Below are positions 2,149 through 27,129 of a DNA stretch of 31,020 nt, one piece after another; the stretch's first letter is position 1, and each line of letters starts with the position of its first letter. The stretch is taken from assembly GCF_003334315.1 (NCBI RefSeq), contig NZ_QOWR01000054.1, one strand, 5' to 3'. The position numbers and the translations under genes are program-made. The stretch comes from Escherichia coli (GTDB lineage: Bacteria; Pseudomonadota; Gammaproteobacteria; Enterobacterales; Enterobacteriaceae). The notes beneath the pieces are model-generated. The model was not told where the DNA came from and ran no database searches. It worked only from the letters and a program-made list of their open reading frames with translations.

Positions 2149-3438
2149 ATGAAAGTATTAGTGATTGGTAACGGCGGGCGCGAGCACGCGCTGGCCTGGA
2201 AAGCGGCGCAGTCGCCGCTGGTTGAAACTGTTTTTGTTGCTCCGGGTAATGCAGGCACTGCGCTGGAACCCGCGCTACAGAACGTCGCTATCGGCGTAAC
2301 CGATATCCCGGCGCTGTTGGATTTCGCACAAAACGAAAAGATTGATCTGACCATCGTCGGCCCGGAAGCGCCGCTGGTGAAAGGCGTGGTCGATACCTTC
2401 CGCGCCGCCGGGCTGAAAATCTTCGGCCCAACCGCAGGTGCGGCCCAACTGGAAGGCTCAAAAGCGTTTACCAAAGATTTCCTGGCCCGCCATAAGATCC
2501 CTACGGCGGAATACCAGAACTTCACCGAGGTAGAACCTGCGCTGGCGTATCTGCGTGAGAAAGGCGCGCCAATCGTCATTAAAGCGGACGGTCTGGCTGC
2601 CGGGAAAGGCGTTATCGTGGCGATGACGCTGGAAGAAGCGGAAGCGGCTGTTCACGATATGCTGGCGGGCAACGCTTTTGGCGACGCGGGTCATCGCATC
2701 GTTATCGAAGAGTTCCTCGATGGCGAAGAAGCGAGCTTTATCGTGATGGTGGACGGAGAGCATGTGCTGCCGATGGCTACCAGCCAGGATCACAAACGCG
2801 TAGGCGATAAAGATACCGGACCAAACACCGGCGGGATGGGCGCTTACTCCCCCGCGCCGGTAGTAACCGATGAAGTTCATCAGCGCACCATGGAACGTAT
2901 CATCTGGCCAACCGTGAAAGGCATGGCGGCGGAAGGCAACACCTACACCGGTTTTCTCTACGCGGGCCTGATGATCGACAAACAGGGCAATCCGAAGGTT
3001 ATCGAATTTAACTGCCGCTTTGGCGATCCGGAAACCCAGCCGATTATGCTGCGCATGAAGTCCGATCTGGTTGAGCTCTGCCTGGCAGCCTGTGAAGGGA
3101 AGCTGGACGAGAAAACATCCGAGTGGGATGAACGCGCTTCTCTCGGCGTGGTGATGGCTGCGGGTGGATATCCGGGCGATTACCGCACCGGTGATGTGAT
3201 CCACGGCCTGCCGCTGGAAGAAGTGGAAGACGGCAAAGTGTTCCATGCAGGCACAAAACTGGCGGATGACGAGCAGGTAGTGACCAGCGGCGGGCGCGTA
3301 CTGTGCGTCACCGCGCTGGGTCATACCGTGGCAGAAGCGCAGAAACGCACTTATGCCTTAATGACCGATATTCACTGGGACGACTGCTTCTGCCGGAAAG
3401 ATATCGGCTGGCGCGCCATCGAACGCGAGCAGAACTAA
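2149..3438 (+). CDS. purD: Phosphoribosylamine-glycine ligase (GAR synthetase)
   Basis: 429-aa ORF MKVLVIGNGGREHALAWKAAQSPL... with ATP-grasp motifs; 11 bp downstream of the purH stop. Confidence 0.97.
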   Translation: MKVLVIGNGGREHALAWKAAQSPLVETVFVAPGNAGTALEPALQNVAIGVTDIPALLDFAQNEKIDLTIVGPEAPLVKGVVDTFRAAGLKIFGPTAGAAQLEGSKAFTKDFLARHKIPTAEYQNFTEVEPALAYLREKGAPIVIKADGLAAGKGVIVAMTLEEAEAAVHDMLAGNAFGDAGHRIVIEEFLDGEEASFIVMVDGEHVLPMATSQDHKRVGDKDTGPNTGGMGAYSPAPVVTDEVHQRTMERIIWPTVKGMAAEGNTYTGFLYAGLMIDKQGNPKVIEFNCRFGDPETQPIMLRMKSDLVELCLAACEGKLDEKTSEWDERASLGVVMAAGGYPGDYRTGDVIHGLPLEEVEDGKVFHAGTKLADDEQVVTSGGRVLCVTALGHTVAEAQKRTYALMTDIHWDDCFCRKDIGWRAIEREQN

Positions 3439-4760
3439 CGCGACAGTTTTGCCAATAGCGTTTTGCGCGTGATCCCTAACTGACGGGCGGCTTCGGTTTT
3501 GTTGCCGCCCGTTTTCTCCAGCGCCGCCAGAATCACCTCTTTTTCCACTTCCACCAACGGCTGAATATCCTGACTTTGTCCCAGCGGGATCGGCGTACTG
3601 GCAATCGCCAGCGGCAGCTCGCGTTCGGAAATATATTCCCCGGTCAGCAGCACCACTGCCCGTTCCACCGCGTTTTCCAGCTCACGAATATTTCCCGGCC
3701 AGTCGTAATGAATCAACAGATCCATCGCCTGGGGCGTAAAACCTTTTACCGCCTTGCGATTACGCTCGGCAAAGCGCTGCAGAAAATGGCCAGCCAGCAG
3801 AGGGATATCTTCCCGCCGTTGCCGCAGCGATGGTACTTCAATCGCCACCACATTCAGGCGATAGTAGAGATCCTGGCGAAAACGCCCGGCATTCACCTCT
3901 GCGGCAAGATCGCGATGGGTCGCCGCAATCAGCCGGACATCAACCGAGATAGTCTGGTTGCTACCGACACGCTGAACTTCGCGCTCCTGAATCGCACGCA
4001 GCAGACGCACCTGCATCATCGGCGAGATATCGCCAATTTCATCGAGAAACAGCGTGCCGCCGTCCGCCTCAACAAAGCGCCCTTCCCGGCGTTTATCGGC
4101 TCCAGTAAACGCCCCTTTTTCGTGACCGAACAATTCAGATTCCAGCAAGGATTCGTTGAGTGCCGCACAGTTGAGCGTTACCAGCGGTTTTTCGCTACGT
4201 GCGCTACTGGCGTGAATCGCCCTGGCGACCAGCTCTTTACCGGTGCCGGAATCGCCGTGGATCAGCACCGTGGCTTCCGATGGCGCGACGAGGGCGATTT
4301 CACTGAGCAGGTGTTGCATCGCCGGGCTTTTACCGACCATACCGAACTGGCTGGCAGTCACCGCAGGTGTTTCAGCATCAATACTGTGCGTATGCGCGAG
4401 CGCCTTTTCCAGCGTCGCCTGTAGGTTATCGAAATCCAGCGGCTTGATGAGATAATCCAGCGCCCCGGTTTTCAGTGCCTCTACCGCCGTCTCGACGCTG
4501 GAGTATGCGGTCATAATCAGTACCGGAATCGCCGGATTTAACGCTTTGATCTCTTTTAGCGTGGCAATGCCGTCCATCTCCGCCATTCGCACATCGCAAA
4601 GCACAAGATCAAAAACTCGCTCCCGCACCTGCTCCAGCGCCTGTCGCCCGCTGTTCGCCAGCGCGACGTTATAGCCCCAGCCGCGCAGTAAAGCCTGCAA
4701 AATAGTGCAGTGGCTAATGTCATCATCCACCACCAGAATATCGATATTATCGTGCGTCAT
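3435..4760 (-). CDS. zraR: Sigma-54-dependent response regulator (bacterial enhancer-binding protein)
   Basis: 441-aa ORF with an N-terminal receiver domain (DILVVDDD...), AAA+ sigma-54 activation domain (GDSGTGKE Walker A, GAFTGA loop) and C-terminal helix-turn-helix; stop overlaps the convergent purD stop. Confidence 0.95.
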
Positions 4761-6133
4761 CCTTGTGGGTCCTTACGCGTAATATTGACCGGAAGACAGA
4801 GGGTGAACGTTGCGCCTTTTCCCTCCTGGCTTGCGACCTGAATTGTACCACCGTGTTGTTCAACAATATTATGCACGACCGCCAGCCCCAATCCGGTGCC
4901 TTCGGCTTTGGTGGTGAAGTACGGAGTGAAGATGGCTTCAAGCTGACCTGCCGCAATTCCCTTACCGCTGTCGGTAACGCTGATTTTCACGCCCGCGCCG
5001 CTTTCGCTGGCCGTCACGCTAATCACACCATGCTGACCAATCGCCTGAATAGCATTGAGATAGAGATTCAACAGGACCTGAGTCAGCCTGTCTGGGTCGG
5101 CCTGAATTACCGGTAATGTGTCGTTGGTGGTAAAGCGTAACTGGATCTCCCGGCTGTTTGCATCCTGGCTTACCAGCTGTAATGAGTGGTTAATCAGCGT
5201 GTTGAGATCCACCGCCTGCAAAGCCAGATGCGTTGGCTTAACCAGTTCCAGCAACTCGCTTACCACACGGTTTAAACGGTCGGCTTCTTTCGCCATCACC
5301 TGCGCCAATTGATGCGCTTCTCCCCCTGCTGGCGCGCGTTCGGCAAAGTATTTCGCCAGCCCTTTAATTGAGGAAAGTGGATTACGGATTTCGTGGGCAA
5401 CGCCTGCTGCAAGATGCCCCAGTGCCACCAGCTTCTCTTTGCGCTTCATTTCATCCTGCAACAGCTGGCGCGAGCGCAGATAGCGGCGATACCAGAAGAA
5501 TGACAACACGCTTGCCAGCAAGACCGTCGCCAGGGCGAAGAGGATAATCAGGGTGTTTCTCTGCTCACGATCTTCGGCACTCACAATATTACTGGCGTCG
5601 AAAGCGATGAAAATTGCTTGTGGTGTCGCGGCATACTGCTGCATATGGCGCATCCGGTGCATTCCAGCAGCAAACATCGGTTGAAACTGGCGATAAATTT
5701 CCAGAACAGGCTCGCCGTCTGCGCTATCGATCCGCCGCCACGCTTCTTCATCTCCCGGATGTAACTGCTGCATTTCCTGCGGGGAATAAAGCTGTTTTCC
5801 CACCATGCCGGAGTTGCTATGCATCACGATTGTTCCTTGTTCATCCGTGACCGCAAACCAACGTACTCCAGGCTGCCCGGCCATTTCTTCCAGTAAGGCC
5901 TGCTGCTGCGCATGATGCATGCGCATCCCCATGCCGACGCGCGAGCCGGATTCAAGAGCGCGAATAAGTACACTGCCTTTTTCCAGCAGCGTTTGTCTGG
6001 CGGCGGCAGTCTCGCGCCCATAATCGCGAATCACCGTCACCGCAAACAGCCCCACCAGCCCAACAATGACCACGGGGAGGATCGCGCTTAACCATTTAGC
6101 TAAGGAGTCTTTAGAACGTTGCATAAAACGCAT
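4757..6133 (-). CDS. zraS: Sensor histidine kinase of the ZraSR two-component system
   Basis: 458-aa ORF with an N-terminal transmembrane segment, H-box (HEIRNPL) and ATP-binding G-boxes; its stop overlaps the zraR start (ATGA junction). Confidence 0.93.
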   Translation of the reverse strand: MRFMQRSKDSLAKWLSAILPVVIVGLVGLFAVTVIRDYGRETAAARQTLLEKGSVLIRALESGSRVGMGMRMHHAQQQALLEEMAGQPGVRWFAVTDEQGTIVMHSNSGMVGKQLYSPQEMQQLHPGDEEAWRRIDSADGEPVLEIYRQFQPMFAAGMHRMRHMQQYAATPQAIFIAFDASNIVSAEDREQRNTLIILFALATVLLASVLSFFWYRRYLRSRQLLQDEMKRKEKLVALGHLAAGVAHEIRNPLSSIKGLAKYFAERAPAGGEAHQLAQVMAKEADRLNRVVSELLELVKPTHLALQAVDLNTLINHSLQLVSQDANSREIQLRFTTNDTLPVIQADPDRLTQVLLNLYLNAIQAIGQHGVISVTASESGAGVKISVTDSGKGIAAGQLEAIFTPYFTTKAEGTGLGLAVVHNIVEQHGGTIQVASQEGKGATFTLCLPVNITRKDPQG

Positions 6134-6164
6134 CTTCTTCTTTGCCTGCTCATCCCTTTCTGAC

Positions 6165-6180
6165 AGCAGAAATCATGCCA
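6165..6180 (-). promoter_or_regulatory. zraS: Sigma-54 (-24/-12) promoter for zraSR
   Basis: Minus-strand sequence TGGCATGATTTCTGCT (rc of 6165-6180) has GG and GC at the consensus spacing of TGGCAC-N5-TTGCA, about 30 bp upstream of the zraS start. Confidence 0.6.
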
Positions 6181-6231
6181 TCTTTTATCAGCGCTTACCC
6201 TGCGCTGTAACACAAAGGCTTAAGTTTCAAT

Positions 6232-6277
6232 GAGTAAAAATGACTCGCTACCCGCAGCAGGCGAGTCATTTTTACTC
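6232..6277. promoter_or_regulatory. Perfect 17-bp inverted repeat (GAGTAAAAATGACTCGC-N12-GCGAGTCATTTTTACTC), candidate ZraR enhancer site
   Basis: Exact reverse-complement arms read directly from the sequence, centred about 70-90 bp upstream of both divergent sigma-54 promoters, the position expected for an enhancer-binding protein site. Confidence 0.65.
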
Positions 6278-6319
6278 GTTTATCATGCCAGATTACCCGT
6301 CATATCAGCGTTTCATCGT

Positions 6320-6336
6320 TGGCACGGAAGATGCAA
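6320..6336 (+). promoter_or_regulatory. zraP: Sigma-54 (-24/-12) promoter for zraP
   Basis: TGGCACGGAAGATGCAA matches TGGCAC-N5-TTGCA with correct GG/GC spacing; about 35 bp upstream of the zraP ATG, which has a GGAGG ribosome-binding site. Confidence 0.7.
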
Positions 6337-6370
6337 TACCCGAAGTAAGACAACCATCGGAGGATTAACC

Positions 6371-6853
6371 ATGAAACGGAACACGAAAATTGCCCTGGTA
6401 ATGATGGCGCTTTCAGCAATGGCGATGGGCTCGACATCTGCATTTGCTCACGGCGGACACGGTATGTGGCAGCAAAATGCCGCGCCTTTGACCAGCGAAC
6501 AACAGACAGCGTGGCAGAAAATCCATAATGACTTTTACGCTCAAAGCAGCGCACTGCAACAGCAACTGGTGACGAAGCGTTATGAATACAATGCCCTGTT
6601 AGCCGCGAACCCACCGGATAGCAGCAAAATTAACGCGGTCGCCAAAGAGATGGAGAATTTGCGTCAGTCGTTAGATGAGTTACGGGTGAAACGAGATATT
6701 GCGATGGCTGAAGCGGGTATTCCGCGCGGTACACCGGAATGGGTTACGGCGGCTGCGGTGGTGGCGGTCATATGGGTATGGGCCACTGGTAAATCAGAAC
6801 GTTTTCTCGTTGGGTTGCCAGCGACAGAAATCAGAGTTTGCCACCAACAGTAA
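6371..6853 (+). CDS. zraP: Periplasmic zinc-stress protein ZraP (signal peptide plus LTxxQ-type region); C-terminus as read here looks frameshifted
   Basis: Start ATG at 6371 (MKRNTKIALVMMALSAMAMGSTSAFA signal peptide) with a GGAGG RBS. The in-frame reading runs to 6853 with a hydrophobic tail overlapping yjaH, whereas a Gly/His-rich tail MGYGGCGGGGHMGMGHW-stop is encoded in the next frame and ends at 6792. Confidence 0.6.
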   Translation: MKRNTKIALVMMALSAMAMGSTSAFAHGGHGMWQQNAAPLTSEQQTAWQKIHNDFYAQSSALQQQLVTKRYEYNALLAANPPDSSKINAVAKEMENLRQSLDELRVKRDIAMAEAGIPRGTPEWVTAAAVVAVIWVWATGKSERFLVGLPATEIRVCHQQ

Positions 6854-7495
6854 TTGCGAACCTTCGGGCGCTTCCAGCCATGCCACGCTGACATCAACAG
6901 AAGAGCGGCTCTGGCGGCGCTCGATATGCGCTATCGCCTGCGAATCTAAATCAGGTTTAATGGTTTGCCCTTCGCAGGTGGTCACGGTCTGTTCCATCGC
7001 ATGCCAGCGCCCCTGGCGCAGCACGACTCTCCCCTGACGTAAGGCATCGCTAATCTGGCGGATCTGATCAGCACGATAACGGTATAAATCGATTTGGTCG
7101 TTAGAAAGCTGCTGCTTTTCCCCATCGGATTCACGTTGCATAAAGCTCAGATCACCGCGATCGTCAAAACGCGCGCGAATATTCACCGGCGGTTTGCTGT
7201 AAACATTGATATTGATGAGCGTGAGGTTATCGCCCTGCCAGCGATACTCTCGCGTCGTGGTATCGCCACTGCGCCACGGGCTAAACACGGCAAGCAGATG
7301 CACATTATCGCCGCTGTCTTTTCGCCAGATGCGTACCGCGCCCTGGTCTTCAGCAAATCCACTGGCGGTAAAGGGAGGAAGTGAAGAGTTGTGGCTACAG
7401 GCAGTGAGAAACAGCGCACCTGCCAGCATCAATGATCGACGCCAGAAAGACAAAAGGGGTGAAACCACCCCTTCGTTAAAACTGTTCACTGCCAC
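6794..7495 (-). CDS. yjaH: DUF1481-family putative lipoprotein
   Basis: 233-aa ORF with a lipobox-like LTAC motif near the N-terminus; sits immediately downstream of hupA as in E. coli. The exact start is uncertain (true start may be a few codons inside). Confidence 0.85.
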   Translation of the reverse strand: MAVNSFNEGVVSPLLSFWRRSLMLAGALFLTACSHNSSLPPFTASGFAEDQGAVRIWRKDSGDNVHLLAVFSPWRSGDTTTREYRWQGDNLTLININVYSKPPVNIRARFDDRGDLSFMQRESDGEKQQLSNDQIDLYRYRADQIRQISDALRQGRVVLRQGRWHAMEQTVTTCEGQTIKPDLDSQAIAHIERRQSRSSVDVSVAWLEAPEGSQLLLVANSDFCRWQPNEKTF

Positions 7496-7501
7496 GCAAT
7501 C

Positions 7502-7774
7502 TTACTTAACTGCGTCTTTCAGTGCCTTGCCAGAAACAAATGCCGGTACGTTAGCTGCGGCAATTTTGATTTCTTTACCGGTCTGCGGGTTGCGGCCAGT
7601 ACGCTCAGCGCGGTGGTTCACTTTGAAGGTACCGAAACCAACCAGTTGTACAGCATCGCCTTCTTTCAGAGACTCAGTAATTGCAGCCAGAGTGGACTCC
7701 AGAGCAGCTTTAGCCTGGGTTTTGGACAGTTCTGCTTTCTCTGCAATTACATCAATCAGTTGAGTCTTGTTCAT
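7502..7774 (-). CDS. hupA: DNA-binding protein HU-alpha
   Basis: 90-aa [93 protein letters not shown], recognised as HU-alpha. Confidence 0.97.
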
Positions 7775-17568: not shown

Positions 17569-17739
17569 GAAAATAAGAACACATGTTCTCATCTTCCAGG
17601 ATGCAGCAGACTGAAGAAATTCAGACATCCCGCAACCTGCGATTATCGCAAGGTCAAGGCAAAGTCCGGTAATGGCGTTCTGAATACCAGAGATAATTCT
17701 CTGGCGAAACCCACCTTAGGTGGGTTTTGTTATTTTGAG
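17569..17739 (+). ncRNA. sroH: Candidate small RNA in the thiH-htrC intergenic region (position matches the E. coli sRNA SroH)
   Basis: A roughly 170-nt unit bounded by the promoter above and an intrinsic terminator; no ORF of meaningful size; a small RNA (SroH, about 160 nt) is described at this locus in E. coli. Ends are inferred, not mapped. Confidence 0.45.
17707..17739 (+). terminator. Rho-independent terminator (AAACCCACC-TTAG-GGTGGGTTT followed by a T-rich run)
   Basis: 9-bp perfect stem with a 4-nt loop followed by TGTTATTTT on the plus strand; it abuts the htrC stop on the opposite strand. Confidence 0.75.
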
Positions 17740-27058: not shown

Positions 27059-27089
27059 CAAAAAGGCTGGTGACTAAAAAGTCACCAGC
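27059..27089 (-). terminator. rplL-rpoB intergenic attenuator (partial intrinsic terminator)
   Basis: On the minus strand GGCTGGTGACT-TTTT-AGTCACCAGCC followed by TTTTT lies about 40 nt after the rplL stop; a second hairpin (CAGCCTGA...TCAGGCTG) sits just upstream of it. A partial terminator is known at this position in the L10 operon. Confidence 0.7.
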
Positions 27090-27129
27090 CATCAGCCTGA
27101 TTTCTCAGGCTGCAACCGGAAGGGTTGGC

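Follow-up and report, generated by a model that had tools for sequence, protein, structure and literature searches.

Organization of the zraP locus

The window, by which we mean the whole stretch of 31,020 bases that was analyzed, is a segment of the E. coli chromosome containing purHD, zraRS, zraP, yjaH, hupA, the thi operon, rpoBC, the rplKAJL genes and the start of tuf. ZraP, the zinc resistance-associated protein or signaling pathway modulator, is grouped with the CpxP/Spy-like periplasmic chaperones. In the window its gene occupies the position it has in the family, divergent from zraSR and convergent with yjaH. For the coordinates of all features see Table 1.

Table 1. Features of the zraP locus and lineage-defining sites (positions refer to the window)
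Feature	Position	Strand	Basis
zraR, intact; WP_000148551.1, the same protein as in strains with intact zraP	3435–4760	-	RefSeq annotation
zraS, intact in the window; A336T (G to A, gene nt 1006, window 5128)	4757–6133	-	Sequence comparison
zraP sigma-54 type promoter motif TGGCAC-N5-ATGCA, match TGGCACGGAAGATGCA	6320–6335	+	Regex match
Frameshifted zraP frame, 160 aa, stop TAA 6851–6853	6371–6853	+	Translation
Unaltered part of zraP, residues 1–121 (signal peptide, HGGHG motif, Metal_resist core)	6371–6733	+	Prefix common with the 139-aa allele
zraP lesion, 2-nt tandem duplication (AC to ACAC)	6731–6734	+	Alignment with intact alleles
Replacement tail, out of frame, 39 aa, PEWVTAAAVVAVIWVWATGKSERFLVGLPATEIRVCHQQ	6734–6850	+	Translation
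Orphaned original tail, MGYGGCGGGGHMGMGHW followed by the original zraP stop (6790–6792), +2 frame	6739–6792	+	Translation
yjaH (DUF1481), convergent, unaffected	6794–7489	-	Product WP_001300651.1
Lineage site 1, AC insertion in zraP			
Lineage site 2, G to A in zraS (A336T)	5128		
Lineage site 3, intergenic SNP, three bases upstream of the nudC start codon	11155		

The zraS-zraP intergenic region (6134–6370), which contains the match to the sigma-54 type promoter motif, is identical to that of a strain with an intact zraP allele. PMC4987338 describes zraP as dependent on sigma-54 and ZraR. A consensus scan of the interval between zraP and yjaH found neither an intrinsic terminator nor a terminator-like hairpin.

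Read from the ATG at position 6371, zraP continues to position 6853 and encodes 160 amino acids ending in ...GIPRGTPEWVTAAAVVAVIWVWATGKSERFLVGLPATEIRVCHQQ, as the initial annotation had described. The last 60 nucleotides of this frame (6794–6853) overlap the 3' end of yjaH, in agreement with the overlap of about 60 bp given there. The adjacent frame that had been noticed from position 6739 onward does encode MGYGGCGGGGHMGMGHW, and exactly one nucleotide lies between its stop codon and that of yjaH (6794–6796, minus strand). The nucleotides from 6739 to 6792 are identical to those of intact alleles. The yjaH product is common to the genomes with the frameshift (referred to as carriers) and to strains with an intact zraP, so the overlap of the two frames matters for annotation only.

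The zraP lesion and its protein product

Three in-frame length classes of intact E. coli zraP were found, namely alleles of 139 aa (the ZRAP_ECOL6 type, with ...GIPRGTGMGYGG...), of 141 aa (the type of K-12 and O157, UniProt ZRAP_ECOLI, with ...GAGMGMGYGG...) and of 143 aa (with ...GAGMGMGMGYGG...). This (Gly-Met)n length variation is located directly after GIPRG at the core/tail junction, the same place as the lesion in the window. The length alleles differ by steps of 6 nt and keep both the frame and the tail, whereas the window allele differs by 2 nt and has lost both. Further ZraP proteins of odd length (P0037, P0040, P0044, P0051 and others) are singletons from ENA/Logan with various lesions and represent different alleles.

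An alignment with reference zraP genes, which the initial annotation had suggested, was run on E. coli alleles and placed the frameshifting indel within positions 6731–6738. The letters that had been reported for this octamer (ACACCGGA) are correct, and so is its choice as the site of the lesion. The size of the proposed change is not: instead of a single-nucleotide indel, which the alignment rules out, the window contains a 2-nt insertion of AC. The sequence GGT-AC-CGG of the 139-aa allele reads GGT-ACAC-CGG in the window, and this is the sole difference in 190 nt from the intact 139-aa allele of strain AMSCJX03. Across the lesion the carriers have GGTACACCGG; the single-AC counterpart is GGTACCGG. 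The duplication falls into codons 121–122 of zraP, in a non-homopolymer context. A walk against the nearest intact haplotypes put the extra AC at 6733–6734. Since AC is doubled at 6731–6734, either copy can be counted as the inserted one.

Residues 1–121 of the 160-aa product are identical to the 139-aa allele and are followed by 39 unrelated residues. The product therefore retains the signal peptide and, following it, the His-rich HGGHG motif. Pfam PF13801 (Metal_resist) matches residues 8–121, covering model positions 4–123 of 125 (E = 2.5e-23). With the NCBIfam equivalog model NF008584 the product scores 233.3 bits compared to 279.5 bits for the intact 139-aa allele; intact alleles score 274–279 bits and the curated cut-off is 200 bits, which the 160-aa product passes. 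It matches positions 1–125 of the 145 profile positions and leaves positions 126–145 unmatched. The window product thus resembles the ZraP family in its first 121 residues, its sigma-54 promoter region, its locus position and its above-cut-off equivalog score. It is unlike the family in the absence of the GMGYGGCGGGGHMGMGHW tail, in the 39 unrelated residues, in its length of 160 aa and in a frame that overlaps yjaH.

A Gly/Cys/His-rich tail had been expected for ZraP and is indeed seen in the intact E. coli alleles as well as in Salmonella (PDB-entry 3LAY), Citrobacter, Kosakonia and Enterobacter. The 18-residue native tail GMGYGGCGGGGHMGMGHW provides the sole Cys of ZraP and two of its His residues. 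Tails of the family end with GMG(H/N)W; the translated frame of the window contains no such tail, which is encoded in the +2 frame only. Residues M125, G126, G129, G133, G134, H135, G139 and W141 are nearly invariant in the orthologues from Escherichia, Citrobacter, Salmonella, Kosakonia and Enterobacter. As judged by this near-invariance across five genera, the ZraP tail is under selection. A comparison of the translations also bore out the earlier view that the Gly/Cys/His tail has been exchanged for a hydrophobic one.

AlphaFold (AF2) models of the intact and the frameshifted protein show the same confident helical hairpin, with helices at residues 42–78 and 84–114. The pLDDT of these helices exceeds 90 in the model of the intact protein and is for the most part around 90 in that of the frameshifted protein; in the native tail (residues 122–141) it is below 50. 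With confident helices on one side and a tail of such low pLDDT on the other, the lesion sits precisely at the boundary of the folded core and the flexible tail. In the replacement tail, AF2 placed a low-confidence helix at residues 124–139 (pLDDT 50–58).

This tail contains a hydrophobic 15-mer, WVTAAAVVAVIWVWA, with a Kyte-Doolittle mean of 2.07 compared to 1.94 for the core of the signal peptide. Its summed value on the Hessa scale is -0.18 kcal/mol and the hydrophobic run extends over 15–17 residues. The hydrophobicity of the new tail is an automatic by-product of GGC/GGT-rich DNA being read one base out of phase, because the Gly codons GGC and GGT turn into Ala, Val and Trp codons when read out of frame.

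Distribution of the allele and its linkage to ZraS A336T

A 111-nt probe across the lesion detected it in 55 of the 5,421 complete E. coli chromosomes with a match, which correspond to roughly 50 distinct strains (about 1%), as some carrier strains have been deposited twice. The identity was 100% in 54 chromosomes and 99.1% in cM2a, where the insertion is present too; a 2-nt gap would lower the identity to 98.2%. The exact 160-aa product was found on 573 contigs (NCBI, MGnify, JGI, Logan and ENA), and the index of the assembly collection lists it for 1,014 blocks. Carriers were obtained from chicken, duck, turkey, pig, dog, cattle, frog, fish, pangolin, migratory bird, human and sediment. The inspected carrier records come from China, Hong Kong, Japan, Viet Nam, France, Canada and Malawi.

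The initial annotation had offered two explanations for the shifted frame, a sequencing or assembly error and a genuine, strain-specific frameshift. In the first case the extra AC would be an assembly error and the strain would truly possess an intact 139-aa zraP. Errors do occur in the collection: the annotation of strain 162.2 marks the essential gene rpoC as 'frameshifted', homopolymer deletions are found at locus L017, and the window itself contains a private 1-nt deletion at position 17719 that is present in no RefSeq carrier. The zraP lesion, however, doubles a dinucleotide outside any homopolymer, and it is identical in 55 complete genomes that originate from many groups and platforms. 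It is also perfectly linked to an independent SNP 1.6 kb away, which is not expected of a random error. We therefore discarded assembly error on the strength of the population data, that is the 55 chromosomes, the 573 contigs with the exact product and the linkage to ZraS A336T, and regard it as scarcely credible. The second explanation is borne out in that the frameshift is genuine.

It is not strain-specific, however, but lineage-specific and completely linked to the A336T exchange in ZraS. A probe for the A336T site was 100% identical in exactly 55 records, which are the 55 carriers of the zraP frameshift. Among 5,426 genomes, none contained the frameshift without A336T or A336T without the frameshift. 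Because the two changes always co-occur, the carriers form one lineage with a single origin and clonal descent. Mutually they differ at about 0–6 positions in 24 kb.

The window is identical to strain HH194M over 31,020 bases except for one base in an intergenic loop, the deletion at position 17719. The genome from which it is derived is probably another member of the carrier lineage. Among haplotypes with an intact zraP, the nearest are those of HCP6S3_I2 (UK pig), 210221272 (US swine) and H1. In a comparison of 24.4 kb, these consistently differ from the window at the three lineage sites listed in Table 1, in addition to the private position 17719. Two of the three lineage-defining differences are located in zraS and zraP, which make up 7.4% of the 24.4 kb. 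The corresponding binomial P is about 0.016, calculated post hoc from three events, and is a weak hint at an enrichment of lineage changes in the zra genes. One carrier, 14EC001, has been typed in the literature, as an ST793, O115:H10 atypical EPEC with mcr-1 (PMC6206212). Two other carriers are ECZP248, which has an mcr-1 plasmid, and the multidrug-resistant HH194M.

The zraP gene is annotated by RefSeq/PGAP as a 'frameshifted' pseudogene in all eight carriers inspected. The RefSeq pseudogene corresponds to positions 6371–6792 of the window. The entries BWI86_RS00610 (13C1065T), MOO21_RS21080 (HH194M) and CR534_RS25575 (14EC001) represent the same allele with identical gene DNA. The initial annotation had named, as an outcome that would speak against a lesion, the annotation of the 160-aa frame as a protein in related strains. 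Some DDBJ records (BBP19202.1 and others) do list it in this way, whereas RefSeq/PGAP calls the gene frameshifted. The DDBJ entries reflect a gene caller without pseudogene logic. The allele as such is already annotated: it is an ordinary lineage-specific mutation of the pseudogene type, which RefSeq labels 'frameshifted' in dozens of genomes.

The original tail reading frame and its stop codon are still intact in the +2 frame, and the same spot shows in-frame (Gly-Met) hexanucleotide copy variation (139, 141 and 143 aa). Both observations could be taken to mean that ribosomes shift back into the tail frame by programmed recoding, or that the AC repeat switches the tail on and off by phase variation. 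Intact tail DNA, however, is also expected from a recent mutation. A scan for X XXY YYZ slippery heptamers found none anywhere in frame 0 of zraP, and approximately 99% of the E. coli genomes, like every other genus examined, use a single frame; programmed frameshifting was rejected on these grounds. Phase variation was rejected as well. Two AC units are far shorter than known contingency repeats, the state is fixed in the 55 carriers and in perfect linkage with a SNP, and neither a reverted nor a three-unit AC state was seen among the carriers. The probability that either process operates at this site is close to nil.

In most carriers both zraS and zraR are intact, so that decay of the Zra system is not uniform. 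Two carrier sublineages have lost zraS, one by an insertion of IS1A and one by a nonsense codon. IS1A is located at the same zraS site in F1053 (France) and in 162.2 (Canadian turkey). In 2017.04.03CC (Viet Nam) a C-to-T exchange creates the nonsense mutation Q344*, which RefSeq annotates as 'internal stop'. A split zraS in L017 was not counted, as it occurs alongside homopolymer deletions and is probably assembly noise. These later, independent knockouts, counted in carriers only, suggest that the lineage can dispense with the Zra system or that the system is decaying there. Together with the lineage changes, the zraS losses hint either that selection on the Zra system has relaxed or that suppressors of ZraS signaling have been selected after the loss of ZraP feedback.

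Consequences for ZraP function

The C-terminus of ZraP reportedly drives the assembly of dimers into an octamer, while the metal sites are said to lie near the N-terminus; both points are attributed to work by Petit-Hartlein et al. from 2015. Our literature searches on the role of the ZraP C-terminus found nothing specific, and searches for a zraP frameshift or pseudogene found no paper describing the allele. The length of zraP has been surveyed in 179 pig isolates (PMC6892955), and the carrier allele is not mentioned there. For the intact proteins, PMC10848872, PMC4987338 and PMC8264917 describe ZraP as a zinc-dependent periplasmic chaperone whose zinc-bound form represses zraPSR. Also according to PMC10848872, which cites earlier work, ZraPSR of K-12 aids envelope integrity and intrinsic tolerance of membrane-targeting drugs.

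Based on the alignments, the models and the population data we propose the following course of events. The AC duplication would have arisen once, on the background of the 139-aa allele, in one E. coli lineage that also carries ZraS A336T. It shifts the frame exactly at the end of the helical-hairpin core and leaves the promoter, the signal peptide, the HGGHG motif and the Metal_resist core unchanged, and the frame continues for 60 nt into the antisense strand of yjaH. The frameshifted gene is probably still transcribed from the sigma-54 promoter and its product probably exported. Lacking the conserved tail and bearing a hydrophobic extension, the 160-aa product is most likely a ZraP that is defective or unstable. 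Given the role reported above for the C-terminus in octamer assembly, it may fail to assemble normally or may be unstable. Impaired higher-order assembly would in turn impair the zinc-dependent chaperone and repressor functions, and the product could be prone to aggregation. Loss of ZraP function is inferred here from the loss of the conserved tail and from the secondary loss of zraS in some carriers. Partial function is possible, because the Pfam core is retained in full, as is the N-terminal metal motif. In summary, we consider it highly probable that the carriers inherited an AC duplication of single origin which removes the tail, most likely renders ZraP defective and makes the gene a pseudogene in effect.

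The same features could alternatively belong to a working ZraP variant that is kept by selection, in which the hydrophobic helix tethers the protein to the inner membrane or alters its partners and thereby changes ZraS signaling. In favor of such a variant, the signal peptide, the core domain, the HGGHG motif and the promoter are all intact, and the new tail has a 15-residue segment that exceeds the signal-peptide core in hydrophobicity, has a near-zero Hessa sum and is modeled as a helix. The lineage is also globally successful in many hosts, and the one further coding change in the vicinity lies in the partner protein, ZraS A336T being in complete linkage. A hydrophobic run of 15–17 residues, however, is short for a membrane span, the helix reaches a pLDDT of 50–58 only, and the tail arises automatically from Gly codons read out of frame. 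With about 0–6 differences in 24 kb the lineage is too young for its conservation to be informative, and the loss of zraS at least twice among the carriers is a better fit to dispensability. A selected variant of this type is therefore unlikely.

The changes in zraS can also be read as successive suppressors. In that case a ZraP with the exchanged tail would no longer repress ZraS, or would be a membrane-tethered or aggregation-prone periplasmic species, and the deregulated ZraSR envelope-stress response would select for attenuation of ZraS, first by A336T (near the ATP-binding N-box) and then by IS1A and Q344*. We regard this sequence of events as improbable. If true, it would represent a natural case of co-evolution between a sensor and its accessory protein after loss of a negative-feedback element.

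The importance of the finding is small beyond annotation quality and strain biology. The zraP disruption is a true lineage marker and not an error, and annotators should therefore keep the pseudogene rather than 'correct' it. Where a pipeline has no pseudogene logic, a spurious 160-aa 'ZraP' overlapping yjaH is deposited. The combination of ACAC in zraP and A336T in ZraS is a convenient typing marker for the lineage. Considering the role of ZraPSR in envelope integrity and drug tolerance in K-12, the carriers, which occur in poultry, swine and humans and are in part multidrug-resistant, offer natural zraP-defective backgrounds and with them a natural test of the role of the Gly/His tail.

Length variation and the convergent end of zraP

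The junction between the core and the tail of ZraP is a natural hotspot of length polymorphism (6725-6745 in the window and the homologous region of L002-L004, loci from other E. coli genomes). One to three copies of a hexanucleotide unit, GGAATG or GGCATG, each encoding Gly-Met, are found at this position and give rise to intact zraP alleles of 139, 141 and 143 amino acids. At the other end of the gene, an upstream in-frame ATG at 6230 in the ORF listing of the window opens a 207-residue reading frame, and a 186-residue protein deposited as ZraP from E. coli 53638 (P0034) carries an identical N-terminal extension. A longer ZraP starting at this ATG was rejected as an annotation artefact, because the extension (6230-6370) spans the sigma-54 promoter.

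The genes zraP and yjaH are convergent, with stop codons separated by 1 nt (6790-6796). A scan of 6100-7600 detected no terminator-like hairpin between or near their ends, so that the two transcripts presumably overlap. The sole hairpin of this type in the scanned region lies downstream of hupA at 7474-7453, on the minus strand.

Intergenic differences and record reliability

Coordinates of the features discussed here and in the following section are compiled in the table.

Features in the window and in loci of other E. coli genomes
Feature	Window position	Strand	Other loci	Context or source
ZraS A336T site	5128	minus		comparison with other complete genomes
zraS Q344*	corresponds to 5104		L024/L022 (2017.04.03CC)	
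IS1A insertion in zraS	~5372		L009 5372-6139 (F1053), also L010 (162.2)	
11155 SNP	11155			nudC-rsd intergenic, 3 nt upstream of nudC start codon (11152)
sroH	17569-17728			thiH-yjaZ intergenic, contains 17719 deletion
RF00630 match, "Pseudomonas sRNA P26"	27064-27125	minus		Rfam, rplL-rpoB intergenic

At the third site that defines the zraP frameshift lineage, the nearest haplotypes whose zraP is intact have C where the window has A; this site falls into the spacer between the ribosome-binding site and the start codon of nudC.

A 1-nt deletion in sroH is private to the window and affects the loop of a terminator hairpin, which reads AAACCCACC-TTA-GGTGGGTTT here and has the loop -TTAA- elsewhere. 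TTAA is present in HH194M, a frameshift carrier nearly identical to the window, as well as in the three nearest intact-zraP haplotypes. All other top matches show one uniform extra base relative to the window, in agreement with TTAA. The deletion may reflect either a true mutation confined to the window or faulty assembly of the sequence from which the window was taken. The RefSeq record of strain 162.2 labels rpoC, an essential gene, as "frameshifted" (L010 19261-23485), which is almost certainly an assembly error; this case shows that frameshifts from one record in this genome collection require corroboration.

Just downstream of rplL, the match to RF00630 scores 74.5 bits (gathering score 36). 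Rather than a separate sRNA gene, it probably marks the rplL-rpoB spacer (attenuator), which is conserved and structured.

ZraS in the frameshift lineage

The non-synonymous, lineage-specific substitution A336T in ZraS (zraS gene nt 1006) is located shortly before the N-box of the HATPase domain, in the context ...LRFT[A>T]NDTLPVIQADPDRLTQVLLNLYLNA... The complete genomes with A336T are exactly the 55 with the zraP frameshift, and the substitution is absent from all others.

Knockouts of zraS were noted among frameshift carriers. Two of these, F1053 and 162.2 (France and Canada), contain IS1A in zraS at one common insertion site. A third carrier, the Vietnamese human isolate 2017.04.03CC, has the nonsense mutation Q344* (CAG to TAG). 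Inside the zraP frameshift lineage, zraS has been knocked out secondarily and independently.
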